Shown here piece by piece: positions 86 through 14,850 of a stretch of 64,000 nucleotides of DNA. Origin of the DNA: a virus (lineage: Duplodnaviria > Heunggongvirae > Uroviricota > Caudoviricetes); the IMG/VR virus record IMGVR_UViG_3300042905_002309, positions 169,278-233,277 of that record; one strand, 5' to 3'. A model generated the notes under the pieces. That model ran no database searches and was not told where the DNA came from. It was given only the letters and a program-made list of their open reading frames with translations. Both the position numbers and the translations under genes were made by a program. Position 1 is the first letter of the stretch; each line of letters begins with the position of its first letter.

Positions 86-358
86 TTGTGCGCCATGAAT
101 AAACGTTTCAGAGAAGTAATTTATTGTAACGGTTGTAGAAAAGAGCTTGACATTAATAATTTTTTCTGTAGTGAATGCGGTGGATCGGTGATAAATGGTA
201 AAATAGATCGTTTTGCTGTTGCAGAAGAAATTTATATTGAAATGAAGAACAAGTTTGTTTGGTATAAACCTTCAACATGGTTCAATACTTGTTTTTGGCA
301 GATTATTCAGATTAAGGATTGTTACGGATATACGCTCGATTCGATAAGAAAACATTAA
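86..358 (+). CDS. small Cys-rich (CxxC...CxxC) zinc-ribbon-like protein; C-terminus RKH overlaps conserved promoter element
   Basis: ORF track; two CxxC pairs; stop lies inside conserved agaaaacattaaaatttca promoter-upstream element. Confidence 0.5.
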   Translation: MCAMNKRFREVIYCNGCRKELDINNFFCSECGGSVINGKIDRFAVAEEIYIEMKNKFVWYKPSTWFNTCFWQIIQIKDCYGYTLDSIRKH

Positions 359-410
359 AATTTCACACAGCTATTGACATATGAACGGGTATATGGGAGA
401 CTTATTCACA
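345..410 (+). promoter_or_regulatory. early sigma70-like promoter cassette copy 1 (A-rich UP-like element, TTGACA 374-379, N17, GAGACT -10)
   Basis: Consensus shared with copies at 1185, 4595, 5420, 11172, 12168, 14778. Confidence 0.55.
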
Positions 411-458
411 TGGACAACGAAAGCATAGAAGAGTATATCAAGCGTAAAGGAAACTAAA

Positions 459-914
459 ATGAGTGTTGATCTAAGGACTTGTGTTAAGGGTGATAAGTTG
501 ATTTCAAAGCATGGAATGGTTCTGGAATATGTTGGGGTAACACCTGCGGGAAATTACAATGACCATTATGTGCAATATCCTGATGGGTCGAAAGGTACAC
601 GGACACATGAAGGATTCACATACAGGAATGTTGCTACACGGCTTGATACTGATCATGACATTGTGAACATTGTCAAGATTGTACCTAAAATTAAGATTAA
701 GTCTAAGGGACATCAGTTGTTCAATGTGCCTAACAACGAAGAGGGTAGAGAGTTCATACGCCTCATGAGGAAGTTCAACAACAAGAAACGCTTTGATTTG
801 AAGGGGCGTGGAAGTCGTTTAGTGTTTGCAAAGGCTACGAATGCTTACACGGCACAATGCAGTTTGCGTAAGTCTTATTCTGAATGGTTTGCTGTCTACA
901 CAAGAAAACACTAA
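459..914 (+). CDS. hypothetical protein (151 aa), ends RKH
   Basis: ORF track; RBS aaaggaaa upstream; same-strand packing. Confidence 0.55.
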   Translation: MSVDLRTCVKGDKLISKHGMVLEYVGVTPAGNYNDHYVQYPDGSKGTRTHEGFTYRNVATRLDTDHDIVNIVKIVPKIKIKSKGHQLFNVPNNEEGREFIRLMRKFNNKKRFDLKGRGSRLVFAKATNAYTAQCSLRKSYSEWFAVYTRKH

Positions 915-926
915 CAGGAGTGTATC

Positions 927-1196
927 ATGGATACATCGTATGAATGGGATTGGGAAGAGGTTGATACACACGGTGACATACTTGATCATAATTTTAGTGA
1001 TAAGCTCAAGAGTCAGCCTGAACCAGACAACGCACTAACACACTATGAATTAGTATTAGTTTACAATCGTGGTGATGATGTTGAAGGGATTGTTGATCGA
1101 TCATGGGCTTATGTACAGGATGGAAAGCTACCTGAAACCTTTCAGAATGGTATCAAGGTTCCTAAACGATTCCATGAAGAGATAAGAAAACATTAA
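927..1196 (+). CDS. hypothetical acidic protein (89 aa), ends RKH inside promoter element
   Basis: ORF track; RBS caggag upstream. Confidence 0.5.
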   Translation: MDTSYEWDWEEVDTHGDILDHNFSDKLKSQPEPDNALTHYELVLVYNRGDDVEGIVDRSWAYVQDGKLPETFQNGIKVPKRFHEEIRKH

Positions 1197-1250
1197 AATT
1201 TCATGCAGTAGTTGACATACTCATAGGGATGATGTAATCTTATTGAAGTT
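1185..1250 (+). promoter_or_regulatory. early promoter cassette copy 2 (TTGACA 1212-1217, N17, TAATCT; conserved tattgaagttgag leader)
   Basis: Near-identical to other copies. Confidence 0.55.
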
Positions 1251-1287
1251 GAGTGCATCAGGTAACAAACACAAACGGGAGAACGGT

Positions 1288-1671
1288 ATGAACGATCTGG
1301 AAAATGTCAAAGTCGGTGATAAGGTTGTGGCGATTAAGTATGGGTTTGGTTGTCTTCCTAGTGAACATACTTATACGGTGACGAGTATCACGCCTAAACT
1401 TCTGGTATGCAAGTGGGGTAATGATGCACAATACGCCACACGCATCAATAAAGAAACTGCCAAGGAGTATGGTGGTGAGTGTCATTATAATCATTCGTCG
1501 TACTTTCCTGAAACACATCAAACAGTTATCGAGCTTCATGCCAAGAAGTTTGAGTTGATGAAGTTTAACACGTTGAAAGAAGGTATCACCACGGCTATCA
1601 AGAATTCGTCTTGTCGTGCAGGGTTGTTGGCTTCACTTGAAATGATTCTTGAAATGGAGAAAGGTTCATAA
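1288..1671 (+). CDS. hypothetical protein
   Basis: ORF track (1243 TTG start); ATG 1288 follows RBS gggagaa and lies downstream of promoter copy 2. Confidence 0.55.
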   Translation: MNDLENVKVGDKVVAIKYGFGCLPSEHTYTVTSITPKLLVCKWGNDAQYATRINKETAKEYGGECHYNHSSYFPETHQTVIELHAKKFELMKFNTLKEGITTAIKNSSCRAGLLASLEMILEMEKGS

Positions 1672-1672
1672 T

Positions 1673-1930
1673 ATGTCTGATAAAGTAATTTTAACTGATA
1701 GTGTTGAAGATATATTAAAGAGTCATTTTGTCGGTAAAGTGATTTGGGACTTAGAATTTGGTACACGTACAGGTGAACGTTGGAAAGCTATTGGTCGGCG
1801 TATTGTTCGTATTGAATTAGGTGTCAATTTTGATGGGGATCGTGGCACGTTTGTTTATGTCGAAGGTATGGATTTTGGGGATGAAGGTATCTTTGTTCGT
1901 GGTAACGAATCAATTTATGTTGAGTACTAA
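1673..1930 (+). CDS. hypothetical protein
   Basis: ORF track; ATG 1673 with RBS gaaagg just upstream. Confidence 0.5.
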   Translation: MSDKVILTDSVEDILKSHFVGKVIWDLEFGTRTGERWKAIGRRIVRIELGVNFDGDRGTFVYVEGMDFGDEGIFVRGNESIYVEY

Positions 1931-1935
1931 AAGAT

Positions 1936-2145
1936 ATGAAAAAAGATTTAAAAGAACTGTTTAAAGTTATGGTAGCTGATGGGTGGCGTGTCAACCATGC
2001 AACAAAGCATTTGATGTGCTATGCGCCCAACGGTAAGGATATTCTAACCGTTGCAGGAACTTCCTCAGACCGAAATTTGATTCGGGTGTTAGGTCGTCAG
2101 ATGAAACATCTTGGTTATGTTGGATACACAAGATATTACAGATAG
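1936..2145 (+). CDS. HicA/YcfA-like small protein (mRNA interferase fold)
   Basis: DGWR...TKHL...APNGKDILTV.G......IRVLGRQMKHLG pattern resembles the HicA toxin family. Recalled motif, moderate confidence. Confidence 0.4.
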   Translation: MKKDLKELFKVMVADGWRVNHATKHLMCYAPNGKDILTVAGTSSDRNLIRVLGRQMKHLGYVGYTRYYR

Positions 2146-2150
2146 GATTT

Positions 2151-2396
2151 ATGAAACCACAAAGTCAAATAGCACATTACGATACTGAAATAGAATTATG
2201 TAAAGTTCGTATCGCTTACTGGTTAAGTTTTGCCACAAGTGAAACTAATTATAATAGAGTGGTTCAGAAGAATTATCACAGAAATCTAAATCGTGCAGAG
2301 CTTGAGAAAGAAGCTTTTGAGGTTGCAGAACGTCATATCGAGCGTATGCAACAGTTATCAGAAGCTAAAATAAAATTTATTGAGGAATTACCATGA
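2151..2396 (+). CDS. hypothetical protein (81 aa)
   Basis: ORF track; tight packing. Confidence 0.5.
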   Translation: MKPQSQIAHYDTEIELCKVRIAYWLSFATSETNYNRVVQKNYHRNLNRAELEKEAFEVAERHIERMQQLSEAKIKFIEELP

Positions 2397-2617
2397 TAGC
2401 AATCTTAGGTGGTATAACACTGGTCTTATTTATAACACTTCTAATATGTTTTCTAGTTATCCGATTTTTACACAACATGTGTAAATCATATGAAAACATT
2501 GTAGATACCTATGAAATTATGGAATGTGACTATAATCGTCTAGTAACTAATTATGCACACTTAGCACAGAAACTAGAAGCTTACAAGCGAATCATTGATA
2601 CTTATCGTGAGGGTTGA
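2393..2617 (+). CDS. small membrane protein (N-terminal TM helix)
   Basis: ORF track; hydrophobic N-terminus ILGGITLVLFITLLICFLVI. Confidence 0.45.
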   Translation: MIAILGGITLVLFITLLICFLVIRFLHNMCKSYENIVDTYEIMECDYNRLVTNYAHLAQKLEAYKRIIDTYREG

Positions 2618-2618
2618 T

Positions 2619-3098
2619 ATGTGTAATCCAAAACATAAAACTATTACACAAATTTTTGTACATGATCCACATCCATATTCACAAGCTTCACTGATTAAGT
2701 TACAACGTGATTATCGGCTGTTGGATGTTGATTGTTGGAACTACAATAAAGATTGGCGCAGAAATTATCTATCGACAAAGGTTGATAAACATGGTAAGTT
2801 GGTATGTGAATATTGTGGTAAGCGTAATTTACAGATTAAAGTTAATGGTAAATGTAATCAACATCTATTAGCCACGGTTGACCATGTGCGCCCTCTTAGT
2901 AAGGGTGGAAGTAAGTATGATACGAATAACTTCAAGGTGTGTTGTCCTGCCTGTAACTTGTTAAAGGATGATAGGACATTGGCTGAGTTTATGATTGATC
3001 TTGAAGCTTCTGGTAAAATTATTCGAAAAGAAAAGTTAAGTATTTTGAAGAGATGTTTGACAAAGGTTAAGGGTTGGTATAAGCTTATTAACAGTTGA
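2619..3098 (+). CDS. HNH homing endonuclease
   Basis: CEYCGKRN...ATVDHVRPLSKGG...NNFKVCCPACNLLK is a classic HNH motif; immediately upstream of the tRNA-like region. Confidence 0.8.
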   Translation: MCNPKHKTITQIFVHDPHPYSQASLIKLQRDYRLLDVDCWNYNKDWRRNYLSTKVDKHGKLVCEYCGKRNLQIKVNGKCNQHLLATVDHVRPLSKGGSKYDTNNFKVCCPACNLLKDDRTLAEFMIDLEASGKIIRKEKLSILKRCLTKVKGWYKLINS

Positions 3099-3113
3099 AC
3101 GAGATAGACAAAT

Positions 3114-3201
3114 GGTTGTTAACCGGATCGTCTAAATTGGCTAGGACACTTCAATGTATTTGGAGAGACTGTGGGTTCGATTCCCTACCGATTAACAACC
3201 G
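3114..3201 (+). tRNA. tRNA-like element (T-loop-like GGTTCGATTCC; 12-bp terminal helix GGTTGTTAACCG/CGATTAACAACC); isotype unresolved
   Basis: T-loop consensus and long terminal stem seen by eye; canonical cloverleaf could not be completed. Confidence 0.3.
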
Positions 3202-3401
3202 AAGGAACGTTACGTGAAATCCTCATTCAATTTGTGGTTAAAGGATTGTGAACGACTCGTAAGAATTGAAAACGATTTGATAACCACTTTATTTTCAGTG
3301 TGGTGTTCCAGAGATGAACATGACCCCTGCTTAGATCAGGTAGCGATTCGACGATGAAGCCACATTTAATTTATTGAAGTTGAAACACAAAGGAGCGTGT
3401 C

Positions 3402-3551
3402 ATGGATAAAGTAATCTGTAGTTGTTGTAAAGATCATGAAGCGGAACATTACGTGAAATCCCCTAATATTAATTTTGAATTTGTTGAAGAGATAGACGGT
3501 CATGGAACGAAGTACAAGGGAAGTTACTGGAACAAGAAACAACGTGTTTGA
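3402..3551 (+). CDS. 49-aa ORF, 5'-duplicated truncated paralog of the 4675-4929 Cys-rich gene
   Basis: 79-bp near-identical repeat (3371-3449 vs 4644-4722) covering leader, RBS and the first ~15 codons, then divergent. Confidence 0.3.
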   Translation: MDKVICSCCKDHEAEHYVKSPNINFEFVEEIDGHGTKYKGSYWNKKQRV

Positions 3552-3621
3552 ATTACGAACTCAATAGAAAGTGAAATCCTCTTTAACATTATTTTCAGTG
3601 TCCGTACAATGAGGTAAAATT

Positions 3622-3828
3622 ATGGATGAATATTTCAAATCTGAGGTGATCGATCAGCGTGGTAAAACTTTTGAAGAGGTTGCCACGTTGGATGGTAGTA
3701 ATCGGTGTAAGAAGTGTGCGTTCAGTCAGTATGACCCTGTGTTTGATTGTCTTGCTGATGAATATGGTATGCCTTCTTGTGAAGATCGTCTTGATGGAAC
3801 TACTGTATATTTCAAGAAAGTGAGTTAA
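3622..3828 (+). CDS. small Cys-containing protein
   Basis: ORF track; RBS gaggtaaaa. Confidence 0.45.
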   Translation: MDEYFKSEVIDQRGKTFEEVATLDGSNRCKKCAFSQYDPVFDCLADEYGMPSCEDRLDGTTVYFKKVS

Positions 3829-3829
3829 T

Positions 3830-4045
3830 ATGAAGAATAACAATGATGATGAGAATATGGCTTTTTTGGGGTTTATTATTGGCCTTGGGTTAGGTATATG
3901 TGCAATGGTAGTTGTTGCAATAAATGTTGCTGATGGTGCGGAACATCGTCAGAAAGTAAAGGCTGTACAAGCGGGTGTTGCACACTGGAACACTGCCACA
4001 AGTGGTGAGGTTACATTCAGTTTTAACACTGTTACGAATAAGTAA
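3830..4045 (+). CDS. small membrane protein
   Basis: ORF track; TM helix FLGFIIGLGLGICAMVVVAI. Confidence 0.45.
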   Translation: MKNNNDDENMAFLGFIIGLGLGICAMVVVAINVADGAEHRQKVKAVQAGVAHWNTATSGEVTFSFNTVTNK

Positions 4046-4054
4046 GGAATAAAT

Positions 4055-4348
4055 ATGTCTACACTATGGGGAAGCGTTGATGGTTCTATCCGTAACTTTA
4101 AGGCTATGGGTGATACACATTTGGCTAATGTTTTGTTGCATGTTCAACATTACAAGGGATATCCGATAACTATTCAGCATGAGATTTATAAGGAGATTGA
4201 GGCACGAGGTCTTTCAATGGAGTTTGTAAAAGGTGCGCCTTATCCTTGGAAGCATAAGCATACTGGCGAATGGTATATCTGGTCTTTTGATCGTGGGTAT
4301 GTTAAGAAGATTACAGAAGCAGAGGTTCTAGCGAGAGGATTAAAATGA
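4055..4348 (+). CDS. hypothetical protein
   Basis: ORF track; RBS taaggaataaat. Confidence 0.5.
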   Translation: MSTLWGSVDGSIRNFKAMGDTHLANVLLHVQHYKGYPITIQHEIYKEIEARGLSMEFVKGAPYPWKHKHTGEWYIWSFDRGYVKKITEAEVLARGLK

Positions 4349-4599
4349 ATTTATTTAATATATTTAAGAAAAAGAAGGTGGAAGTAGTTCTCACCGTTCC
4401 AAAGGGTTACGTCATTTTGAAGAATGGTATCGGTGAATATAAGTGGGAGAACACTAAAACAGGACGTAGTTCAGCCGATTACTCTTATGATATGTTTAAG
4501 AGTTATGATGAGGCTGTTCAAGATTTAATTAGAACTATTGAATGGTCAGAACGTTCCAGATTGCGTGATGTGTGGGAACGTCTTGATAAGAAAAGTTAA
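4345..4599 (+). CDS. hypothetical protein
   Basis: ORF track; ATGA overlap with upstream gene. Confidence 0.5.
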   Translation: MNLFNIFKKKKVEVVLTVPKGYVILKNGIGEYKWENTKTGRSSADYSYDMFKSYDEAVQDLIRTIEWSERSRLRDVWERLDKKS

Positions 4600-4660
4600 G
4601 TATTTCACAAGCCTATTGACATCTTAGTACACATGGTGCATACTTATTGAAGTTGAAACA
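4595..4660 (+). promoter_or_regulatory. early promoter cassette copy 3 (TTGACA 4616-4621, CATACT -10, conserved leader with aaggag RBS)
   Basis: Consensus shared with other copies. Confidence 0.55.
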
Positions 4661-4674
4661 CAAAGGAGCGTGTC

Positions 4675-4929
4675 ATGGATAAAGTAATCTGTAGTTGTTG
4701 TAAAGATCGTGAAGCGGAACATACTGGTAAAATTGAGTGTGAAGGTGATGAAGTAAGTCTTTGTTGGTCTTGTATGTCTCAAAAAGAATTAGCTTGGAAT
4801 TATGATGGCTATTTCTGTTCGGATCACGAGACTTGTCATATGTGCGGAGGTCGTGCAACTTGGTGTTCGTGTTGTCAAACCTATTTATCACATTGTTGTC
4901 AGGATTATGGTACTTGTCAATGTTCATAA
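4675..4929 (+). CDS. Cys-rich (about 17 Cys in 84 aa) putative metal-binding protein
   Basis: ORF track; many CxxC/CC pairs; perfect RBS. Confidence 0.55.
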   Translation: MDKVICSCCKDREAEHTGKIECEGDEVSLCWSCMSQKELAWNYDGYFCSDHETCHMCGGRATWCSCCQTYLSHCCQDYGTCQCS

Positions 4930-4955: not shown

Positions 4956-5210
4956 ATGGAAATCTTGAAAAGAAGTGATGATTTTTGGAAAGCACCAAAA
5001 GCAGTAGCGGTATCCGAAACGGATGTTATGCAGTGGATTGAACGCTCTATTAAGGAACTTCAAATTTATCCAACGCTTGAAATTGCCTGTGTTAGTTCAG
5101 GCAATAGGATGATAGAAGTTGAACGTGATGGATTTGATGAATCTGATAATAGACCTTTGTATAAAGCTTTTGTGTTTACTGATTACGAAATTTTCAAACT
5201 TAAAGGATAA
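4956..5210 (+). CDS. hypothetical protein
   Basis: ORF track. Confidence 0.5.
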   Translation: MEILKRSDDFWKAPKAVAVSETDVMQWIERSIKELQIYPTLEIACVSSGNRMIEVERDGFDESDNRPLYKAFVFTDYEIFKLKG

Positions 5211-5214: not shown

Positions 5215-5421
5215 ATGGAAAAGTCAGAAGTATGCAATCAATGTTTTCTGTTGTTTCACACACATCGATTATTTGAGCAATTGAGTAACCCTGCGTGTCC
5301 TATCTGTGGTCAACCTATCACTACTGGTGAATTGATTCACTTGGAACCTACTGGTGATGGGCGTATCATGTACTCACATGGCGAATGTTTTCACTTTGTG
5401 GACTCTGAATCAGCCGTTTAA
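5215..5421 (+). CDS. zinc-ribbon small protein (CNQC...CPICG)
   Basis: ATG 5215 with RBS aaaggataaaatt; the track ORF started earlier at a non-ATG codon. Confidence 0.5.
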   Translation: MEKSEVCNQCFLLFHTHRLFEQLSNPACPICGQPITTGELIHLEPTGDGRIMYSHGECFHFVDSESAV

Positions 5422-5485
5422 GAAAACATTAAAATTTCATAATCCTATTGACAAGTTGATAGGGATATGAGAGACTTATTGAAGT
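5420..5485 (+). promoter_or_regulatory. early promoter cassette copy 4 (TTGACA 5448-5453, GAGACT -10)
   Basis: Consensus. Confidence 0.55.
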
Positions 5486-5516
5486 TGAACGAAAACTACT
5501 AACAAAGGATAATAAA

Positions 5517-5895: not shown

Positions 5896-6123
5896 ATGTA
5901 CGAACTTCATGGAACAACGCTTAACGGATTCTTCACGGATAGTGAATATTGGGATTGCTCTTGTGATAACAATTACATTCATAAGAAATCTTCTGGTAAC
6001 TATTGTCCAAATTGTAATAAATTTATGGAAGAGATGCCTGACAGTCGTGTACTAGAGATTCCTAAACACTATGGCGATTACTCTGATAAATATATTCAAC
6101 ATAAAGTTTATGAGGAAGCATGA
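5896..6123 (+). CDS. zinc-ribbon small protein (CSCD...CPNCNKF)
   Basis: ORF track, ATG 5896. Confidence 0.5.
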   Translation: MYELHGTTLNGFFTDSEYWDCSCDNNYIHKKSSGNYCPNCNKFMEEMPDSRVLEIPKHYGDYSDKYIQHKVYEEA

Positions 6124-6329
6124 TGAAGATTGGACAGAAATTTAATGTAGAGGGTGAGGGAACCTTCATCACAGAAGCTATTACTGAACCAGTGGGTGAC
6201 GATGTTGATGTGTGTGCGGGGTGCGTAGCTGATGGATTACCCTTATGTGGTAAGATGCCTATAGAATGCACAACGGATTCCGAAAAGGGTGTATGGTTCG
6301 TTTATAAGAAATTTGAGAAGAAGTCATGA
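6120..6329 (+). CDS. hypothetical protein
   Basis: ORF track; ATGA overlap. Confidence 0.45.
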   Translation: MMKIGQKFNVEGEGTFITEAITEPVGDDVDVCAGCVADGLPLCGKMPIECTTDSEKGVWFVYKKFEKKS

Positions 6330-6490
6330 ACACCATCGAACATAAGCTATTTCGTGAGATGTTAAATCTGAGTGAGGAAGCACTAACTTTTGCTCACAAA
6401 TCCCCCTACAAAGCTGAATATAAGCTTATTAAAAAGCAGTATACCAGTATCGTTAAGCGATATCAGAAGCTTATTCAAAAGAAAACCTGA
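6326..6490 (+). CDS. small ORF (54 aa) not in track
   Basis: Read by eye; ATGA overlap with the upstream gene; same strand. Confidence 0.35.
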   Translation: MNTIEHKLFREMLNLSEEALTFAHKSPYKAEYKLIKKQYTSIVKRYQKLIQKKT

Positions 6491-6545
6491 GTATTTATAG
6501 ACAACCATTCTACCTTGTGGCATACTTTTAACAGTTGAAACACAA
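6483..6545 (+). promoter_or_regulatory. degenerate early promoter cassette copy 5 (CATACT -10 and conserved leader retained, -35 degenerate)
   Basis: cctgagtattt...catacttttaacagttgaaacacaaagg. Confidence 0.35.
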
Positions 6546-6554
6546 AGGTTAAAT

Positions 6555-6695
6555 ATGGCAACAAAACGTAAAGGTACATTGGTAGTGGCGAAAGAATGGT
6601 GGAAACATTTGCGTCCATTCGGTAAGCGTAATACAGCAAAGCGTGAGCGTCTTGCGAGTAAAAGAGAGATTAAAAAGGATATCAAAGATGAATAA
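6555..6695 (+). CDS. small basic ORF (46 aa)
   Basis: Read by eye, directly downstream of the conserved leader. Confidence 0.4.
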   Translation: MATKRKGTLVVAKEWWKHLRPFGKRNTAKRERLASKREIKKDIKDE

Positions 6696-7485
6696 ACTAA
6701 TTTTAATAATTTCTATTATAATCTTGGCGAATATTTCATATGGGAAGGGGTTCTGGTTTATTTCAATTCCCGTACATCAGGATAAAATACATCATATTGA
6801 TGATAATGGTAATGTTTATTATGATTCTGATGTCAAAGCTGATCAAAAAAGAAGTGCTGAAATTCAGAGACAAATAGATGCTAAATCTGGTCAATATTAT
6901 GAAGAATTTTTAAAAAATGATAGAAAATGGAAAGCAGAACGGGAAGAAAAAGAAAGAATAAAATTACAAAAACAAGCGGAATATCAAACTAAAAAGAATG
7001 ACTATGATGCGGAATATATTAACATTAATGTCAAATATAACTCAATATTATCTAACGCTGATGTGAATTATAAATCACCTCCAGATGTACTTTTACAATG
7101 CTTATCTGTTAGTAATAAATATGATCAAGAAATAATTAAACTTAAAAATAAATACTATAAACGAATTTCCTTTTTACAGGAACGACATGGCTTGAAGGAA
7201 GGATATTATAATAATGCAAAGGAATTAATGACTAGTAACGACCCCATTATGGTTAAAACTAGAACTAGAATGACAATGGAATATAATATTAAAATTGTAG
7301 AATTAAATAAAGAAATAAAAGATCAAATGTATGAATACGCACAGGTTCGGGATGAAAGAGTAAAAGAAATATTAAGATGGAATAAAAATAATACGTTGCG
7401 TGGTATTGATAAACAAAGAGAATCAAAACTAAAAGCATTAAAAGTTCCTGAACTGGAACGTCAATATAGTAATGATTATAATTAA
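6688..7485 (+). CDS. secreted K/E-rich coiled-coil protein with signal peptide
   Basis: ATG 6688 (MNKLILIISIIILANISYG), then charged repeats. Confidence 0.6.
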   Translation: MNKLILIISIIILANISYGKGFWFISIPVHQDKIHHIDDNGNVYYDSDVKADQKRSAEIQRQIDAKSGQYYEEFLKNDRKWKAEREEKERIKLQKQAEYQTKKNDYDAEYININVKYNSILSNADVNYKSPPDVLLQCLSVSNKYDQEIIKLKNKYYKRISFLQERHGLKEGYYNNAKELMTSNDPIMVKTRTRMTMEYNIKIVELNKEIKDQMYEYAQVRDERVKEILRWNKNNTLRGIDKQRESKLKALKVPELERQYSNDYN

Positions 7486-7536
7486 TTATTCTTCAATATC
7501 TTGTGGTAGTTCAGGTTGTGGATGTGGAGAAGGGAT

Positions 7537-7716
7537 ATGAAATACTGCATAGATGATAAAATAATCACTGAATTGGCAAGATTGTTGAAATTTTCTTTAG
7601 ACAATCCGTATTTGTCGCAAATAGATTATAATCAACATCTTGAAGAGTCAAAAGTATTGTTGGAACGAGTGAAAAAGAAACAGTACGATTTGACATCTGA
7701 AAGAAGCTTGTTATAA
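7537..7716 (+). CDS. hypothetical small protein
   Basis: ORF track; ATG 7537 with RBS gagaagggat. Confidence 0.4.
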   Translation: MKYCIDDKIITELARLLKFSLDNPYLSQIDYNQHLEESKVLLERVKKKQYDLTSERSLL

Positions 7717-7847
7717 TTATTTTCTTCTGAACGAAGTGAATAATTTTTAAGACGTTATGAAGAAGTTTTAAAGACTATTAAGAACAGTAAAGAGGATAAG
7801 CAGAGTATTAAGATTAAGAGAGCTTTATAAAGCTTTGAAAAGGATTT

Positions 7848-8067: not shown

Positions 8068-8262
8068 ATGATACCTAAGAAGATTCGTAGAACGTTGACC
8101 ATTGACAAAGCTAGTTATGAGTATTGTGTAACTGGCAGGTTTGCTAAAAGCATCTTTGTAAAGAATTTAGGTACAAAGAAGAGTTTTAGTGTGTATATCG
8201 ATGATGAAGTTGGTATTCATCCGTGGGATATTAAAAAGTTGATTGGTGAAAAGAAAATCTGA
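8068..8262 (+). CDS. hypothetical small protein
   Basis: ORF track, ATG 8068. Confidence 0.45.
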   Translation: MIPKKIRRTLTIDKASYEYCVTGRFAKSIFVKNLGTKKSFSVYIDDEVGIHPWDIKKLIGEKKI

Positions 8263-8419
8263 AAATTGTTGTTGACGTTTTAAAGAATTTATGAGACACT
8301 GATTTAAGTTGGATGCAGAAAGACATTCGTAGCACGATTAGACTATGTGCAACTCCATTACAGGAGTCGAAAGCAGGAATTGGTCGGCCTGTCGGATGGA
8401 ACAATAGTGAAATCTCTGT

Positions 8420-8517
8420 ACAACTAGCGCAGAATTAAGGATAGACGTTTGGTAGTGTAATGGGAAACACGCACCTTTTATCAAGGTGAATAGCAGGTTC
8501 GATTCCTGCCCTTGGAA
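8420..8517 (+). tRNA. tRNA-like element / possible pseudo-tRNA (D-arm-like GTGT-AATGGGAA-ACAC, perfect T-arm GCAGG-TTCGATT-CCTGC; acceptor pairing not found)
   Basis: Read by eye; followed by GTGAAATCC motif as at 3214. Confidence 0.3.
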
Positions 8518-8572
8518 CAATTTGTGAAATCCCTTATTTTTTAATTTTGAGTTGTGTAAACGAAGGAATAAA

Positions 8573-8768: not shown

Positions 8769-9446
8769 ATGCCAAATCATTATGCAACAAAGTTAGAGTT
8801 TACACACCCTGCACAATTGGCTATTGTTAAAGCTTTGTACAAGAATAAGGATTATGAAATCTGTCGTGATGTGATGCCAATGCCTGACATTTTTAATCAC
8901 ACTCAATCACCTTCCAATGGAATGTATTGTGAAGATGATCCACAATATCCTAAGTGTGGTATTAAAATTGGTGTGCGTGAGTTTACAGCAGAAGAACGTT
9001 TTATCTTTGTGCGAGAAGGTGTTGATAACTGGTATGATTGGGCTAATAAGAATTGGGGTACGAAGTGGGGAACCTATGATGCATCTTTTAGAAATGGATG
9101 CATGTATTTTAATTCAGCTTGGTGTCCACCGCAAGAAGTGATTTTCCAGAAATTTGCTGATAAATATAGTCTAAGTTTTGATGTTTGGGGTCATGATGAA
9201 GGTGTCAAAGATTTTGATTACTCTGGTGGATATGATGGTACTGATTATGAAGCACCAGAAGTTGATGTACAGGAACCTGTACAGGTTAAACGTATCAAAC
9301 CGATTAATCTTTGGGTAGTTGTTAAGGATGGTAAAGCTATTCCCGTTATATACTACACACGTAAAGAGGCACGTATGGTATCTAAGAAGGCTAAGACGTT
9401 TGGCATTAAATTAAGTGTTAAGAAAGCTTTGATTCAGAAAGGTTAA
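8769..9446 (+). CDS. hypothetical protein (225 aa)
   Basis: ORF track; ATG 8769, RBS aaaggaataaaatt. Confidence 0.6.
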   Translation: MPNHYATKLEFTHPAQLAIVKALYKNKDYEICRDVMPMPDIFNHTQSPSNGMYCEDDPQYPKCGIKIGVREFTAEERFIFVREGVDNWYDWANKNWGTKWGTYDASFRNGCMYFNSAWCPPQEVIFQKFADKYSLSFDVWGHDEGVKDFDYSGGYDGTDYEAPEVDVQEPVQVKRIKPINLWVVVKDGKAIPVIYYTRKEARMVSKKAKTFGIKLSVKKALIQKG

Positions 9447-9524
9447 TATGTTAGCATTTATTATTATGTGGAAGAGTGTTGTGAGTACGATTTGGAATGG
9501 TACAGAGAACAGCAATACAAATAA

Positions 9525-9773
9525 ATGAAATTTACATTCAGCTATGAGAAGAAGTATCTTGAACACGTAACGATTGATATTCCTGATGATCTTGAAGTCT
9601 TGAAAGAAGGTATGATTATAGAATACAATGATGTTTATATCGCCAATACTGACCATCGTTTGCATGATGCGGATCGTTGGCACGTTGGTACAAAATTTCA
9701 TTCAGATTATAACATGCCATTTTTTCGTAAAAAGATTGAGAAACCATTTGACACAGTTCACTTAATCGTGTAG
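9525..9773 (+). CDS. hypothetical protein
   Basis: ORF track. Confidence 0.5.
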   Translation: MKFTFSYEKKYLEHVTIDIPDDLEVLKEGMIIEYNDVYIANTDHRLHDADRWHVGTKFHSDYNMPFFRKKIEKPFDTVHLIV

Positions 9774-9803: not shown

Positions 9804-10067
9804 ATGAAATCGGAACTAGAAGTAGCAATGTCAGAGAGTCTAAAAACTGTTTACCCTTATTTGGGAAAACATATGATGCGTCCAGATTTTTTACCATCGA
9901 CAATGGTAGTAGTGTTGTTTGTTGCGCCGAAATGCGGGGTAGTTATGTATGTGGGTGAAGATCATAATAAGACTTATAGTAGAAGTAAGAAATTGGGTGA
10001 ATGGCGTACTGATTGGATTGAAGGGGTATTTGAACGTTTTGAAGGTAAATTGGTGATGGAAAATTAA
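9804..10067 (+). CDS. hypothetical protein
   Basis: ORF track; RBS aaaggag. Confidence 0.5.
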   Translation: MKSELEVAMSESLKTVYPYLGKHMMRPDFLPSTMVVVLFVAPKCGVVMYVGEDHNKTYSRSKKLGEWRTDWIEGVFERFEGKLVMEN

Positions 10068-10068
10068 C

Positions 10069-10276: not shown

Positions 10277-10990
10277 ATGAAAGAGTCGAGTACGATTAGT
10301 GTGGTAGTTACAAAGGATAATAGCGTTGTGGCACTCTATGGCTATACGCCTGATGAGCAGGGTATCAAGGAAGCTAACGATCGTTACGGAAAACTTAGCA
10401 CGATTTATCTTGCCAAGTTTGAGTATAACGTTAGTCTCATTAAGTCAATGTACAAAGGTGCTAATGCATCCAATGTGCGTTATCTACAATCTAAGTATGA
10501 TGCGAAGCGTTTTGCCAAGATTGTTGATGGTAAGTTTGCAGAGATTAAGGAAGATGGTGTGAATCTTGGTGAAGTGGTCAACGGTCTTATCATCAAGGAT
10601 ATTCCTTATCTTCCTGAGAGTGGTGATTGGAAGGATTGTACCGAAGCGGATTACCAAGGTCTTGTGAAGCCTGTTGAACAGCCTGTGGCAAAGCCTATGG
10701 TTTGCAGTATCCACGAGTATATCAAGGATGTTGATGATAACCGTGTTGGTGTGTTCGTTGGTATTGGTGTCTGTGATTCAGGGTTCGATATCGGTTGGAG
10801 TAAAGTTAATGTGAACGCAGGTGATGTGTTCGATAAGTATGAAGGATTTAATATCGCTCTTAATCGAGCGCAAGAGTCTAAGCCTTATGAACAGAAGATT
10901 GCCGAAGTTCCTGATTCACTTTTGGATTACTACCAGTACTTCCAAGGTCGTTGTCAGCGTTACTTCAAGTGTGAACAGCTTTTGAAGTAA
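10277..10990 (+). CDS. hypothetical protein (237 aa)
   Basis: ORF track; RBS aaaggaataaaatt. Confidence 0.6.
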   Translation: MKESSTISVVVTKDNSVVALYGYTPDEQGIKEANDRYGKLSTIYLAKFEYNVSLIKSMYKGANASNVRYLQSKYDAKRFAKIVDGKFAEIKEDGVNLGEVVNGLIIKDIPYLPESGDWKDCTEADYQGLVKPVEQPVAKPMVCSIHEYIKDVDDNRVGVFVGIGVCDSGFDIGWSKVNVNAGDVFDKYEGFNIALNRAQESKPYEQKIAEVPDSLLDYYQYFQGRCQRYFKCEQLLK

Positions 10991-11006
10991 GAAGAAGGAT
11001 ATTAAG

Positions 11007-11174
11007 ATGCTTGAGATTTTTTACAATTGGTCGTTGATTATGGCGTGGATGATCGCAGTGATTCATGGATTTTGGATTATCTTGCGTTTCATTAGGTCAA
11101 AGGATGTACCGTATAACTTTGTACTCTATTGGTTCCTTGTGTCAGTTGCGTGGTTGATTGTGAATCGTGGATAA
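11007..11174 (+). CDS. small membrane protein (55 aa), not in track
   Basis: Read by eye; RBS gaagaaggat; two TM segments. Confidence 0.4.
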   Translation: MLEIFYNWSLIMAWMIAVIHGFWIILRFIRSKDVPYNFVLYWFLVSVAWLIVNRG

Positions 11175-11240
11175 GAAAACCTGAGTATTTCACAGAGTAG
11201 TTGACAAATCGATTACTCTGTGAGATACTTATTAATAGTT
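11172..11240 (+). promoter_or_regulatory. early promoter cassette copy 6 (TTGACA 11201-11206, GATACT -10)
   Basis: Consensus. Confidence 0.55.
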
Positions 11241-11279
11241 GGAAGTAAACAGCAACACATTAACAGGATAGTAATAAAG

Positions 11280-11447
11280 ATGAAGAGTTTTCGGGTGTAT
11301 ATTTATAACATTGATGGTGACAAGAATCCAGAGGATATCATTGATACCTACAAGATTTGGGGTATGACGGAGAAGGAAGTCATGACCAAGCTTAACACAG
11401 AGTTGGGTGAGGGTTCAGACGATTGGAGCGTTGAGGAAGTTAAATAA
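11280..11447 (+). CDS. hypothetical small acidic protein
   Basis: ORF track; ATG 11280. Confidence 0.45.
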   Translation: MKSFRVYIYNIDGDKNPEDIIDTYKIWGMTEKEVMTKLNTELGEGSDDWSVEEVK

Positions 11448-11721
11448 AATTAGGATAAACTTTTGGAATTTGCATGGATTTTGGTTCGTATTCTTCATGG
11501 CACTCTTTCCACGATTGACAATGTTAGTTACGGGTATTGCATTCATGCCGTATGCAGGATTGTTATATTGGTTTGGGTGGGTGTTAGCACCTCGATTGAC
11601 TGTAGCCGTTATTGCTACATTCATGTACTTTCACACTAATCCGATTTTGTGTGTGATTAGTTGGATTTGGGCTTTGGGTGGAGAATCAACTGAAAAGAAA
11701 TATGCTTGTAAATGTAAATAG
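11407..11721 (+). CDS. small membrane protein (start uncertain, GTG 11407 or ATG 11497)
   Basis: ORF track; hydrophobic. Confidence 0.4.
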   Translation: MRVQTIGALRKLNKIRINFWNLHGFWFVFFMALFPRLTMLVTGIAFMPYAGLLYWFGWVLAPRLTVAVIATFMYFHTNPILCVISWIWALGGESTEKKYACKCK

Positions 11722-11730
11722 GAGAATATT

Positions 11731-12057
11731 ATGTTAGACCATGAAATTGTTAATTTGACGAATACGATTATGGGTGTGTTGCGTGAACACGAATCACAAA
11801 TCACTCACACATCTTCAAAAGATCAAGATGAATTGATGCAAACCTTGGTCAAAGATGGTATTGAATTATTCTTCAAGAATCAGATTGCAGTGATCTGGAC
11901 GGTGGAAGATGTTCAGTCCGTGGCAAAAGGTGAAGGCATCGTAATGACCGATGATGAAGCCAATGAGATACTTGATCTAATGTTGGGCGATCATGATGCA
12001 AATGTTGGATTCAATTGGGATTCAATTCGATATACGGTATTGCATTACAAAGATTGA
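11731..12057 (+). CDS. hypothetical protein
   Basis: ORF track; RBS taggagaatatt. Confidence 0.55.
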   Translation: MLDHEIVNLTNTIMGVLREHESQITHTSSKDQDELMQTLVKDGIELFFKNQIAVIWTVEDVQSVAKGEGIVMTDDEANEILDLMLGDHDANVGFNWDSIRYTVLHYKD

Positions 12058-12167
12058 GAATAAATATTAGTAACAGCTAGACGAATGGATTGACAAATTA
12101 ACAAATCAATCGCCAGTAAATCTCCCCTGAAACTGGAAAGCGGGTATTAAGCCTCGCAACCTCCTTA

Positions 12168-12240
12168 TAAAAAACTTGAGTATTTCATAGAGTAGTTGAC
12201 AATGGAACGGCTGTAGTGCATACTTATTAACAGTTGAACG
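12168..12240 (+). promoter_or_regulatory. early promoter cassette copy 7 (TTGACA 12196-12201, CATACT -10)
   Basis: Consensus. Confidence 0.55.
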
Positions 12241-12276
12241 TCATTAGTAACAAATCAAAACGAAAGTGTGAAGATT

Positions 12277-12531
12277 ATGTGCGAAGTTAAAACATGTTTG
12301 GAATGCAAGAAACTCATCCCCTGTCACAAGAAGGCTGAGAAGCGTGAAATGGTTATTTGTGCGGATTTCATTGACATGTATCCTGATGATGATGGTACTC
12401 TCACGATGGAAGAGATTCAGGCACTCAATGCCAGTATTCCAGAGGATGTTATTGAACCTGATTATACGGGATGTGAAGATGATCCTAATGATGTTAATCC
12501 TTGTGAGGGTTGTACCCTTTGTGGAGAATAA
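12277..12531 (+). CDS. Cys-rich zinc-binding small protein
   Basis: ORF track; ATG 12277; CxxC x3. Confidence 0.5.
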   Translation: MCEVKTCLECKKLIPCHKKAEKREMVICADFIDMYPDDDGTLTMEEIQALNASIPEDVIEPDYTGCEDDPNDVNPCEGCTLCGE

Positions 12532-12548
12532 ATAAAATTTAATGTAAT

Positions 12549-12623
12549 GCTCCTAAAACTTTTATGGTGAAGTACCAGACTTTTAATCTGGTTAATTCAG
12601 TTCAAGTCTGAATAGGAGTACCA
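12549..12623 (+). tRNA. tRNA-Lys (anticodon UUU), CCA encoded
   Basis: Acceptor GCTCCTA/TAGGAGT (G1-U72), D-stem ACTT/AAGT, anticodon stem CCAGA/TCTGG with loop CTTTTAA, T-arm TTCAG-TTCAAGT-CTGAA, A73, CCA. Confidence 0.8.
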
Positions 12624-12738
12624 AAACAATCCAAGAATCCCCAAGAGTAACGTGGTAGGGATAAACGAAGCAACACATTCATAGGCTCATTAGTGTTGTT
12701 GTGAATGAGACAGGGTTACTCACACTTTAAGGAATGTT

Positions 12739-12912
12739 ATGAATCGAGAAGAATTTATTAAACAGTTTGTGCTAAACTATACCGCTATTAAGTTCGCTAA
12801 CACCAATATTGGGACTCAAAGTTATGTAGATACTAAACGAGCAATTGAGAATGCTACATTTCTCGCTAAATCTCTCGCATATCGAGTATGGGATGAACTA
12901 CATAAGGATTAA
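12739..12912 (+). CDS. small ORF (57 aa), not in track
   Basis: Read by eye; RBS aaggaatg. Confidence 0.4.
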   Translation: MNREEFIKQFVLNYTAIKFANTNIGTQSYVDTKRAIENATFLAKSLAYRVWDELHKD

Positions 12913-12919
12913 ATTTAAT

Positions 12920-13168
12920 ATGAAATATGTTATCGGTGATGATCTTTTTGCAGTAATTTTTAATGAAGCTATTTCACATGACAAGGTTCGTTGTGGTATG
13001 CGTATCACGAGTGCAGGGTTCTGTAGCATAGACCATAGCGGAGAAGATAGGTGTTTTGAAGATGATGTTATTGTGAAGGTTTGGGGAAAATCGGTCAGTC
13101 TAGGACTCGATTCACTTCCTGATGATGCAGAAATTATAAAGCAAACACTCAGTTTTAAAGGATTTTAA
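12920..13168 (+). CDS. hypothetical small protein
   Basis: ORF track; ATG 12920, RBS aaggattaaattt. Confidence 0.45.
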   Translation: MKYVIGDDLFAVIFNEAISHDKVRCGMRITSAGFCSIDHSGEDRCFEDDVIVKVWGKSVSLGLDSLPDDAEIIKQTLSFKGF

Positions 13169-13171
13169 TTT

Positions 13172-13254
13172 GGCTACGTGGTGGAATTGGCATACACAAG
13201 GGACTTAAAATCCCTCGCTTCGGCATAAGGGTTCGACTCCCTTCGTAGCCACCA
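13172..13254 (+). tRNA. tRNA-Leu (anticodon UAA), long variable arm, CCA encoded
   Basis: Acceptor GGCTACG/CGTAGCC, anticodon stem AGGGA/TCCCT with loop CTTAAAA, variable hairpin, T-arm AAGGG-TTCGACT-CCCTT, A73, CCA. Confidence 0.8.
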
Positions 13255-13260
13255 ATTTAT

Positions 13261-13380
13261 GGGAACGACCTATATGATAGATATGTTTAGTACTGGACAT
13301 ATTAATTCTATAATGGTAGATAGGTGAAAAGGGGTAGATATACCCAATATGTGGAAGTTCGACTCTTCCCGTTCCTGCCA
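13261..13380 (+). tRNA. atypical 120-nt tRNA-like gene (acceptor GGGAACG/CGTTCCT, T-arm GGAAG-TTCGACT-CTTCC, G73, CCA); internal ~35-nt insertion, isotype unresolved
   Basis: Ends fold canonically, the interior does not; possible intron or extra arm. Confidence 0.45.
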
Positions 13381-13387
13381 ACTTGAA

Positions 13388-13450
13388 AAGAAAACTTGAG
13401 CATTTTAAAACAATATTGACAATTTAATCAGAAAGGTGTAAAGTATTAAT
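13388..13450 (+). promoter_or_regulatory. promoter cassette variant (same A-rich upstream element, TTGACA 13416-13421, divergent -10)
   Basis: gaaaacttgagcatttt...ttgaca. Confidence 0.4.
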
Positions 13451-13451
13451 T

Positions 13452-13625
13452 ATGACTATACAAGATGCTAAAGAGGTGCGTATCGGTGAATCGGTGTTGG
13501 TGAATGGTTGTTTGTCAACTGTGCTAAACACTATGCCATTGTCGGCAGATAAGGTGTTATTTGAAGTATGTAATAAATATGATGGTGTTATCGATGTAAC
13601 CCATCAAGAGATTGAATTGTTTTAA
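13452..13625 (+). CDS. small ORF (57 aa), not in track
   Basis: Read by eye. Confidence 0.4.
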   Translation: MTIQDAKEVRIGESVLVNGCLSTVLNTMPLSADKVLFEVCNKYDGVIDVTHQEIELF

Positions 13626-13650
13626 GGATAAATTGTGATGTAACAAGTAA

Positions 13651-13836
13651 ATGAAAGCCAAACCAATACCAAAAGTTTGTAAGTTTTGTGAAGTAGTGCC
13701 TGAATTGAAACGAGCGTCTAACCAGTTCAGGTATGAATGTCCTAAGTGCTTCTTATGCACACCTTTATATAAGAATAAGGTGAGGGCTAGAGGATATTGG
13801 AATAAATTTAATAAGAACTTGAAGAGTGAATTATGA
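13651..13836 (+). CDS. zinc-ribbon small protein (CKFCE...CPKC)
   Basis: ORF track. Confidence 0.5.
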   Translation: MKAKPIPKVCKFCEVVPELKRASNQFRYECPKCFLCTPLYKNKVRARGYWNKFNKNLKSEL

Positions 13837-14066
13837 AAAAAATTAAAGTAACTGGTTATGTGATTGAGACACCAGACGGTGATACACTCGATTCAACGTT
13901 TGATAATGATCCTACTGAATGTATCGGCAGATTTATGTATAAGTTTAATATCTTCACTAAACTTAATGAAGATGATCCATATCTTGATTATATTTGTTGG
14001 AATGATTTGTATGAAGATGGGTATCGAGTTGTGCCAGTAACTTTGACAGGAGTTGTAAGCAAATGA
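13833..14066 (+). CDS. hypothetical protein
   Basis: ORF track; ATGA overlap. Confidence 0.5.
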   Translation: MKKIKVTGYVIETPDGDTLDSTFDNDPTECIGRFMYKFNIFTKLNEDDPYLDYICWNDLYEDGYRVVPVTLTGVVSK

Positions 14067-14326
14067 GTATGCACATTAACGGTATGCCAATTGAAGTCTT
14101 TCGTCAGCAGATTCGTTTCAGCAAGGCGAAGAACATCACAGGTGATGCAGACCTTATCATTGGTGCATCACAGCCCCTTGACGATCAGATTAAATTTAAT
14201 GTGAACCCTGTAACTGGTACAATTGAGGTCTTGACAAGTGAAGTGCCTTCTGTTAGTGTTGTACCGATGGTTGAAGAAGTAAAAGAAATAGTAAATAAAG
14301 GAGAAAAAGATGAGCAAAACGTTTAA
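14063..14326 (+). CDS. hypothetical protein
   Basis: ORF track; overlap. Confidence 0.5.
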   Translation: MSMHINGMPIEVFRQQIRFSKAKNITGDADLIIGASQPLDDQIKFNVNPVTGTIEVLTSEVPSVSVVPMVEEVKEIVNKGEKDEQNV

Positions 14327-14504
14327 AACTAAGAATGACCCTTCTTTCCGTATTCCTACTGTTGTGATTGAAGTTCGTGGTGGAGTTCCTAATATTGTAA
14401 GGAAAGATAAATGTATCTCGTTGGTAATCAAGGACATGGATTGTGGTGATGATAATGAGAAACTTGGTAAAGATATCGTATCTCTTTCATATGAGAAAGT
14501 TTAA
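14310..14504 (+). CDS. hypothetical protein
   Basis: ORF track. Confidence 0.45.
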   Translation: MSKTFKTKNDPSFRIPTVVIEVRGGVPNIVRKDKCISLVIKDMDCGDDNEKLGKDIVSLSYEKV

Positions 14505-14513
14505 GAGTACAAT

Positions 14514-14777
14514 ATGTTCCTATTAATTCTAGTTATAGGTGTACTAACTGTATCACAGTATTACATGTGGGGTAAGATTCTTCGTTATGAAGGCGAAATG
14601 CGTATCATGAAGGAAGTTACCTTAAAGTTTATCAAGCGTTATTACAATCAAGATAGTGAATTGTATAAACGTGCTGACCAGATTGAGCGTACAAAGTGGA
14701 GTCCTGATATCATTGAAAACCACATGGCAGAAGGTAATCCACCCGCTGAAACATTGCTTCCTTTCGTAGGGCGATAA
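14514..14777 (+). CDS. small membrane protein
   Basis: ORF track; N-terminal TM helix. Confidence 0.5.
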   Translation: MFLLILVIGVLTVSQYYMWGKILRYEGEMRIMKEVTLKFIKRYYNQDSELYKRADQIERTKWSPDIIENHMAEGNPPAETLLPFVGR

Positions 14778-14850
14778 GAAAACATTAAAATTTCACGCAG
14801 TAGTTGACAAGTCACAGGGGATAGTTCATACTTATTGAAGTTGAGTGCAT
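14778..14850 (+). promoter_or_regulatory. early promoter cassette copy 9 (TTGACA 14804-14809, CATACT -10) driving rIIA
   Basis: Consensus. Confidence 0.55.

Follow-up and report, generated by a model that had tools for sequence, protein, structure and literature searches.

Promoter-like cassettes, conserved in relatives and reshuffled among copies, in the small-ORF region of an uncultured phage of ~250 kb

Short, closely similar units recur in front of small genes in the first 15 kb of a 64,000-nt stretch of phage DNA (Caudoviricetes; IMG/VR record IMGVR_UViG_3300042905_002309, positions 169,278 to 233,277; hereafter the window), which raises the question of what these units are and what keeps them alike. 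An earlier note on this DNA had described them as mobile early-promoter cassettes that overwrite the C-terminus of the preceding gene and resemble the promoter-early-stem-loop (PeSL) modules proposed to drive gene shuffling in T4-type phages. From the analyses below, we consider it probable that the units are sigma-70-type early promoters with an UP-like element, kept by selection and both reshuffled and homogenised by recombination among copies. They add a further example to a known type of phage regulatory repeat and do not constitute a novel sort of mobile element.

At least 14 copies of the cassette were found in this phage, with 11 significant matches in the window and 3-4 copies just upstream of it. 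All nine copies listed previously were recovered, with -35 hexamers starting at 374, 1212, 4616, 5448, 6498 (TAGACA), 11201, 12196, 13416 and 14804, and two more were identified at 3057 and 8272; copies are named below by these positions (c374 and so on). The pattern TTGACA-N17-SAKACT with up to one mismatch gave 10 matches against 1.8 expected, a number reached in 0 of 100 shuffles, and scans with AAGAAAACNTNANNATTTCA (up to two mismatches) and ACTTATTGAAGTTGA (up to three) gave 9 matches, all on the + strand, against 0.26 expected and 14 against 5.7, respectively. An nhmmer profile, whose E-values are inflated because it was built from the same 11 copies, returned 11 matches at E <= 4.5e-5, all on the + strand and within 341-14838, the next match having E = 0.12. 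A further 9.5 kb, which precede the window on contig L049 of this phage and include the start of the + strand gene block ~4.3 kb before the window, carried three full copies plus one promoter lacking the upstream block (L049 6145, 8089, 8787 and 5645). Within the window, the copies were confined to the block of small open reading frames (ORFs) upstream of rIIA/rIIB, and every copy was co-directional with the genes and located 1-52 nt upstream of an ORF or tRNA gene, rIIA included. For 10 copies, the predicted +1 lay 1-50 nt before an ORF start; the other 2 precede a tRNA or tRNA-like gene.

The unit was revealed to span ~75 bases, from about -63 to +6, and to consist of four blocks, namely, an A/T-rich upstream block, TTGACA, a 17-nt spacer ending in nAnACT, and TATTGA-AGTTGA around the predicted start. 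The upstream block, at about -63 to -44, reads (G)ATAAGAAAAC-T-A--ATTTCA (also written AAGAAAAC.T.A..ATTTCA) and occurs as type A, (G)ATAAGAAAACATTAAAATTTCA, and type B, (G/C)A(T/A)AAGAAAA(C/G)(C/T)T(G/T)A(G/A)GTATTT(C/T)A; eight variable bases, often ending in GTAG or CCTA, separate it from TTGACA. The -35 was perfect in 9 of the 11 copies, and in c6498 and c8272 the upstream block stood 7-9 nt closer to a degenerate -35. The 17-nt spacers, often ending in TRTG, form sub-families such as AGTCACAGGG(G/T)ATAGT and A(G/C)T.ATAGGGAT. The -10 takes the form nAnACT (CATACT, GAGACT, GATACT, TAATCT) with A-11 and T-7 always present, and the most invariant columns were the -35, A-11, T-7 and the A-tracts. 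The start region is TATTGA-AGTTGA or, with one extra base, TATTAAC-AGTTGA, and in both versions the position ~7-8 nt past the -10 is the A of AGTTGA. The leaders are 22-52 nt long with an AAAGGAG-like ribosome-binding site (RBS), except in c13416, where ATG follows 7 nt past the -10. As for the conserved 5′ untranslated region and RBS previously attributed to the unit, AACACAAAGGAG was common to only 3-4 copies, and the leaders otherwise varied between 1 and 52 nt.

The perfect -35, the 17-nt spacing, A-11 and T-7, the A/T-rich upstream block and the orientation along the genes together gave the units a distinctly promoter-like appearance, as had been recognised before, and from these features we infer promoter activity, early timing, UP function and the position of +1. 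The repeats would be the early promoters of a lytic phage of ~250 kb, read by a host sigma-70-type RNA polymerase; the upstream block would most likely be an UP element bound by the alpha C-terminal domains, and the transcripts would start with AGUUGA. Phage T4 has dozens of early promoters for host RNA polymerase in small-ORF early regions, including the region upstream of rIIA; they have the consensus GTTTAC...TATAAT, are conserved from ~-60 to past -10 (an extended consensus of ~-60 to +10), in many cases overlap the 3′ end of the ORF before them, and reportedly contain A-rich UP-like regions. The present cassettes share this extended conservation, the location in an early small-ORF region and upstream of rIIA, and the overlap with the preceding ORF, but differ in consensus and in being near-identical paralogues with shared spacers and segment swaps. 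The UP element of Escherichia coli rrnB P1 and the UP consensus reportedly obtained by systematic evolution of ligands by exponential enrichment likewise resemble the upstream block in being A/T-rich, in lying upstream of the -35 and in having phased A- and T-tracts, with AGAAAA...AAATTTC in both. Unlike the rrnB P1 element, the block here stands ~6 nt further upstream and lacks an A-rich proximal subsite at -46 to -38, and unlike an UP element, its type B has conserved G/C positions.

Relatives found by protein look-ups comprised L019/L020 (rIIA protein 51% identical), L133 (~80-88% identical in nucleotide sequence), L134/L135/L136 (~75-88%) and L137 (~82%); P0002 (rIIA 79% identical) and P0124 were not part of the DNA comparisons. 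Conservation of the cassettes in these relatives was demonstrated at several loci. c11201 including its hairpin was identical at 63/63 positions in L134/L135, with flanks 78% identical; c8272 from the -35 to +40 was identical at 63/63 positions in L133, with flanks at 86%; and the upstream block and -35 of the rIIA cassette (GATAAG to TTGACA) were identical at 35/37 positions in L019/L020. The concern raised in the earlier note that the repeats might be absent from relatives can thus be set aside. None of 80 distant rIIA-bearing IMG/VR contigs contained a cassette, IMG/VR scans with the rIIA protein, two cassette patterns and an 18-mer gave only chance single matches or none, and two genome-contig scans found nothing and hence no host clue. 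Judged from these sequences, the family is lineage-specific; in the published literature, nothing relevant was found on the motif strings. The matches of a metagenome pattern scan were rejected as an unrelated ~800-bp tandem-repeat family fitting the pattern by chance. Its tandem units, on contigs L021, L023, L027-L029, L031, L034, L037, L038, L041 and L042, each carry AAAAAAACATAAAAATTTCTAGAATTTTTTGACA followed by a conserved ATG context.

The copies were also demonstrated to be mosaic. Distances among copies in the left, middle and right segments were uncorrelated (Mantel r -0.14 to 0.08), and individual segments could be traced to different copies: in c14804, the flanks matched c1212 (29/30 and 21/22) and the spacer with the -10 matched L049_8787 (21/23). 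In L133, the orthologue of c4616 combined c4616 flanks (32/34, 38/40) with a spacer and -10 of c1212 type (21/23 vs 10/23), and the L136 cassette at the u8787 locus was of c12196 type for 51/53 nt through AGTTGAACGT and then continued as the u8787 leader. These segment swaps appear to be non-allelic conversions or crossovers with junctions in invariant blocks. Under the promoter reading, the copies would be kept alike by purifying selection on promoter function and also by frequent gene conversion or crossing-over, with TTGACA, ACTTATT and AGTTGA as exchange points, and the same homology would occasionally give half-cassettes, duplications and deletions.

Two half-cassettes, both on the + strand, mark rearrangement scars. 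The one at 903-914 consists of just 12 nt of the upstream block (AGAAAACACTAA), and no promoter comes after it; it was retained in L137 (AGAAAACATTAA) and not in L136 (AGAATCCGCTAA), and a full cassette was present there in no relative. The other, at 3371-3449, comprises the downstream block, leader, RBS and first 16 codons of ORF 4675 without a -35 or -10; these 79 nt are 99% identical to 4644-4722, start exactly at the TTATTGAAGTTGA block, end at a GGAACAT microhomology with another local repeat, and lie within a 224-nt segment (3367-3591) absent from L136. In L133, a deletion extending from just before the c5448 -35 to the interior of ORF 6120-6329 left only the upstream half-cassette. A second repeat, GGAACrTTACGTGAAATCC, follows a tRNA or tRNA-like gene at each of its three sites (3204, 3443 and 8514). 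In the scar downstream of tRNA-Tyr (3197-3620), a duplication of TTATTTTCAGTGT was seen as well, and the 49-aa truncated ORF 3402-3551 is a fusion product.

The relation of the cassette to the preceding gene could be described in similar detail. As had been pointed out, the ORFs ending at 358, 914 and 1196 terminate in ...SIRKH*, ...YTRKH* and ...EIRKH*, the middle one through the 12-nt fragment. Ten window cassettes have an upstream + strand ORF, and in eight of them this ORF stopped inside the upstream block (at -27 to -8, counted from the -35). In all, at least 11 unrelated ORFs ended in the upstream block with RKH*, KKS*, KKT*, KKI* or a TAA at the block edge, a tally that takes in the window cassettes, the fragment 903-914, two L049 ORFs and two read-through cases. 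The TAA of GATAAG was used as stop three times, and a T(A/G)A 8-9 bases past the GATAAG stop ended RKH* three times, KKS* twice, and KKT* and KKI* once each; the two ORFs reading through in an open frame were the HNH ORF (KEKLSILKRCLTKVKGWYKLINS, stop in AGTTGA) and L049 8593-8820 (KEMLSILGEG, whose stop is the TGA of TTGACA). In such tightly packed genes, the upstream ORF would enter the A/T-rich block and stop at its built-in TAA/TGA triplets. Unrelated proteins share the tails RKH, KKS and KE(K/M)LSIL because their ORFs run into the block and stop there. In L019/L020, the block is intact (GGATAAGAAAACATTAAAATTTCA) though the gene immediately upstream is on the other strand, and therefore the constraint is on the DNA and the protein tails are passengers. 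The proposal that the element overwrites the C-terminus was accordingly borne out as far as ORFs end within it; replacement of an older C-terminus would be a further supposition. Two related ideas were rejected: BLASTP gave no similarity between the 151-aa ORFs found at 6234 in L049 and at 459 in the window, which are hence not cassette-flanked paralogues, and the cassette is not a universal three-frame translational stop, all frames being closed in 9/12 copies vs 60% of shuffles.

Stem-loops proved to be exceptional. Folding better than that of shuffles was found only for c5448 (z = -3.6) and c11201 (z = -7.0), the other 10 of 12 copies having z values of -0.85 to +1.8. In both hairpins the -35 lies in the loop; that of c11201 has 23 bp, is followed by TTATTAAT / UUAUUAAU as a promoter/terminator composite, and is perfectly conserved in L134. 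A conserved GAAA-N9-TTTC is too weak to count as a stem-loop, a terminator scan of 1-20 kb gave 6 sites vs 9 in shuffles and was thus not above chance, and an Rfam search returned only tRNAs, with no known RNA family overlapping the cassettes. The promoter-terminator composite is an occasional elaboration in this family.

These data bear directly on the kinship with PeSL cassettes, which are promoter and terminator stem-loop composites of T4-like phages (Arbiol et al., 2010, PMC2839356; Comeau et al., 2014, PMC4122927). If the units were true PeSL-type composites, recombination between them would be the main engine by which ORFan genes are gained, lost and swapped, as in RB49/phi1, T4/PST and KVP40/nt-1, a reading to which we assign a minor share of likelihood. 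Both families are repeated units of ~70-100 bp in an ORFan-rich early region, the ORFs flanking the cassettes here being ORFans; in both, an A/T-rich block precedes a sigma-70-like -35/-10 with N17, the 3′ end reaches the Shine-Dalgarno sequence and ATG, and copies recombine, with degraded half-copies near indels and at rearrangement scars (the chimeras here being inferred from sequence only). The hairpins around the -35 of c5448 and c11201 also follow one PeSL layout. Conversely, a stable stem-loop is absent from 10/12 copies, so that the terminator half is not a family trait; the -10 is nAnACT instead of TATAAT, conservation includes the start region (TATTGA-AGTTGA), the stop codon of the previous gene regularly falls in the upstream block, and the carrier is an uncultured phage of ~250 kb in whose window no T4 core genes were seen (rIIA/rIIB are present) and whose rIIA is <=37% identical to that of any isolate phage. 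The likeness thus extended to the promoter, A/T-rich block, RBS/ATG and recombination; with a stable stem-loop in only 2 of 12 copies and no T4 core gene in view, the cassettes do not qualify as established PeSLs. As to shuffling, ~14 indels or replacements were counted between the window and L133, L134, L136, L137 and L019, by our own tally and not as a formal test, and ~7 of them touched a cassette: ORF 96-358 (5′ edge of c374), the 70-aa ORF of L136/L137 (RBS/ATG of c374), the 3367-3591 insertion, the c5448 deletion, a 1.36-kb L133 module containing a cassette, the extra ORFs after the L019_783 cassette, and, in L019, an endonuclease gene next to the rIIA cassette at its 5′ edge. Seven others had both breakpoints outside cassettes, e.g. 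ORF 1674-1930, ORF 9804-10067 and the replacement of 6679-7501 by a radical-SAM gene; also among these, ORF 4956-5210 was exchanged via AAAGGAT..ATTATGGAAA RBS/ATG homology, and the 1.36-kb deletion at 9446-9525 went through microhomology. Cassettes occupy ~19% of the gene junctions and ~34% of two-ended events are expected to touch one by chance, and therefore 50% of 14 indels is no significant excess. The comparison of junctions among relatives thus supported recombination between copies, as seen in mosaics, half-copies and swaps, but not enrichment of indels at cassettes, and the cassettes cannot be called the main driver of shuffling. Nor did the idea of an autonomous mobile element hold, as the cassette alignment contained no terminal inverted repeats or flanking target duplications, all copies share one orientation, with the genes, and overlap with the HNH ORF occurs in one case only (c3057). 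Mobility finds support only in the form of passive recombination.

At the opposite extreme, the units might be independent strong promoters that converged on the same optimum with neither common descent nor exchange. The extended consensus of T4 early promoters and the coincidence of the most invariant columns with the functional ones are in line with such convergence. We regard it as most improbable, since spacers, normally unconstrained, are shared at 21/23 positions between copies, the 79-nt duplicate of 99% identity reaches into coding sequence, and orthologous loci carry different paralogue-type segments, which already contradicts it. It is also conceivable, but quite unlikely, that the upstream and/or +1 block is a site for a phage-specific factor (an injected or early protein, for instance) that marks, boosts or later shuts off early promoters, or an RNA 5′-end signal. 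The matches of 35/37 at 51% protein identity and of 63/63 amid 78% flanks go beyond what is usual for an UP element or an initial transcribed region, the -10 has a fixed non-consensus form (ACT), and the family is absent from the 80 distant contigs and the scanned collections; on the other hand, no candidate factor was identified, gene conversion alone can explain the excess identity, and the block is conserved in c6498 and c8272 despite its shift by 7-9 nt, which suits a flexible alpha C-terminal domain better than a rigid operator. The cassette could also be a self-homogenising expression adaptor spread and maintained by gene conversion, with its unusually exact upstream and +1 blocks read by a phage-specific factor or by 5′-end chemistry instead of host polymerase alone, which we judge unlikely. 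Several observations weigh against the early-promoter reading favoured here: the -10 hexamers match TATAAT at only 3-4/6 positions, the upstream block lies ~6 nt further from the -35 than in rrnB P1 and is more exactly conserved than UP function needs, G/C positions (CCTGAG) included, the conserved +1 block has no established role, the long hairpins of two copies are not required by a simple promoter, and the profile E-values are inflated as noted above.

With at least 14 paralogous units in one genome and relatives at 51-88% identity, the family constitutes a natural data set on the evolution of phage early promoters, in which the relatives show purifying selection on the whole unit together with segment swaps between non-allelic copies. 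It extends the idea of a PeSL-like recombining cassette beyond cultured T4-like phages, with the stem-loop as a dispensable part; the original shuffling claim is tempered because most gene gain and loss here needs no cassette. The shared C-terminal tails of unrelated small proteins are to be taken as a by-product of DNA-level constraint and not as a protein motif, and in this phage lineage the consensus may serve in annotating early transcription units and the border between early and late genes. Should the expression-adaptor reading be true, an uncultured jumbo phage would possess a lineage-specific early-gene code made of stop codons, an UP-like block, a promoter, a fixed 5′ end (AGUUGA) and an RBS, whose upkeep would be partly independent of the genes served.

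The individual cassettes of the window, all on the + strand, are as follows. c374 (343-415) consists of GATAAGAAAACATTAAAATTTCA, the -35 at 374 and a -10 GAGACT ending at 402 (nhmmer E 1.8e-13); its downstream block is divergent, the cassette contains the end of ORF 96-358 (RKH*), and it is predicted to drive ORF 459-914, which itself ends in RKH* in the fragment at 903-914. c1212 (1181-1253) has a type-A block, the -35 at 1212, a -10 TAATCT and then TATTGAAGTTGA; ORF 927-1196 ends inside (RKH*), and ORF 1288-1671 is predicted to be driven by it. With a type-B block, the -35 at 3057 and a -10 TAAGCT, c3057 (3025-3101; E 2.1e-6) is contained entirely in the 3′-terminal 24 codons of the HNH ORF 2619-3098, whose TGA stop codon is that of AGTTGA, and is predicted to drive tRNA-Tyr (3120-3196). 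c4616 (4585-4674) has a type-B block, the -35 at 4616, a -10 CATACT, TATTGAAGTTGA and the leader AACACAAAGGAG; ORF 4345-4599 ends inside (KKS*) and ORF 4675-4929 would be driven by it. In c5448 (5417-5489; type-A block, -35 at 5448, -10 GAGACT), ORF 5215-5421 stops at a TAA at the edge of the cassette. c6498 (6477-6548; E 2.8e-5) has the -35 TAGACA at 6498 (TCGACA in L133), a -10 CATACT, the leader AACACAAAGG and an upstream block ~9 nt closer to the -35, in which ORF 6326-6490 ends (KKT*).

c8272 (8250-8313; E 4.5e-5) is composed of a shortened upstream block, the -35 TTGACG at 8272 and a -10 GACACT; ORF 8068-8262 ends inside (KKI*), and the cassette is predicted to drive the tRNA-like region 8359-8518. 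In that region, Rfam recognised a partial tRNA at 8451-8511, and ARAGORN run with introns called tRNA-Pro(ggg) with a 67-nt intron, which default ARAGORN missed. c11201 (11170-11245) has a type-B block, the -35 at 11201 and a -10 GATACT. c12196 (12165-12240), which is intergenic, has a type-B block, the -35 at 12196 and a -10 CATACT followed by TATTAACAGTTGA; it is predicted to drive ORF 12277-12531 and tRNA-Lys, and a near-identical promoter core stands at a different locus in L136. c13416 (13387-13451; type-B block, -35 at 13416, -10 TAAAGT, E 2.2e-6) is followed by ATG 13452, 7 nt after the -10, and its mRNA may be leaderless. The stretch 13262-13386 between tRNA-Leu and c13416 starts with GGGAACG and ends with CGTTCCTGCCA, like an acceptor stem and CCA around a long insert, and no tool calls a tRNA there. 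c14804 (14773-14884), upstream of rIIA, combines a type-A block with the -35 at 14804, a -10 CATACT and TATTGAAGTTGA; its leader includes the conserved segment GCATAAGGCATCAA, and a TAA at the cassette edge is the stop codon of ORF 14514-14777. In this leader, TTGA(G/T)TGCATAAGGCATCAA (window 14842-14862; L019 ~4600-4625) is conserved between the distant relatives, and by eye only, a 7-bp bulged hairpin is possible at the predicted mRNA 5′ end.

Promoter-like sites outside the family were also observed. The putative rIIB promoter (17034-17062, + strand), TTGACA-N17-TAAAGT with TG, lies inside the end of rIIA without an upstream block, is retained in L019, and is a non-member by profile (E 0.25). 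A perfect TTGACA-16-TATAAT with TG occurs at 7690-7717. At 32664-32740, a GC-rich hairpin and T-run of the classic intrinsic terminator type is directly followed by TTGACA-N17-(TATGA)GAGACT with ATG 6 nt after the -10; it is a true terminator-promoter composite whose mRNA is probably leaderless, and this leaderless layout is also present in c13416 and the L019 cassette at 783.

The genomic setting was characterised as follows. The window has a GC content of ~36%, and nearly all of its genes are on the + strand. Its first 14.8 kb (1-14.8 kb) form a tight block of small ORFs without family matches, together with an HNH endonuclease and 3-4 tRNA genes, followed by rIIA (14885-17056) and rIIB (17098-18186) and, 3′ of these, by genes for RNA ligase, RtcB, DNA ligase, NAMPT, a NUDIX/cytidylyltransferase, dUTPase, CCA-adding enzyme and homing endonucleases. 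Megablast against annotated phages found no close relative, the sole match being a 40-nt tRNA stretch. At least 15 metagenome samples contain this phage at 99.99-100% identity, and since the longest assembled sequence is 249,720 bp, it is an uncultured phage of ~250 kb; its near-identical environmental copies (L043-L052, 99.99-100% identical) were without informative variation.

Further features were observed in and around this region. At L049 4600-5716, some 4-5 kb before the window and at the start of the early region, two divergent gene blocks are separated by 1.1 kb of non-coding DNA. This gap could be a control region or genome end; it contains promoter-like sites and a direct repeat of 55 nt (4960-5014 / 5029-5084, 88% identical). 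Window positions 6643-7800 form a low-GC island (31.7%) with a 265-aa Lys-rich ORF and the promoter-like site 7690-7717, and in L133 the portion made up by ORF 6688-7485 is swapped for a 69-aa ORF and a 446-aa radical-SAM ORF. Finally, window 61836-61951 is 90.6% identical to L019 4374-4488, though the rIIA proteins are only 51% identical; this stretch adjoins the minus-strand endonuclease-like ORF 61264-61896 (endonuclease VII/HNH phrog hits), whose counterpart in L019 is inserted just upstream of the rIIA cassette and which looks like a mobile endonuclease gene.

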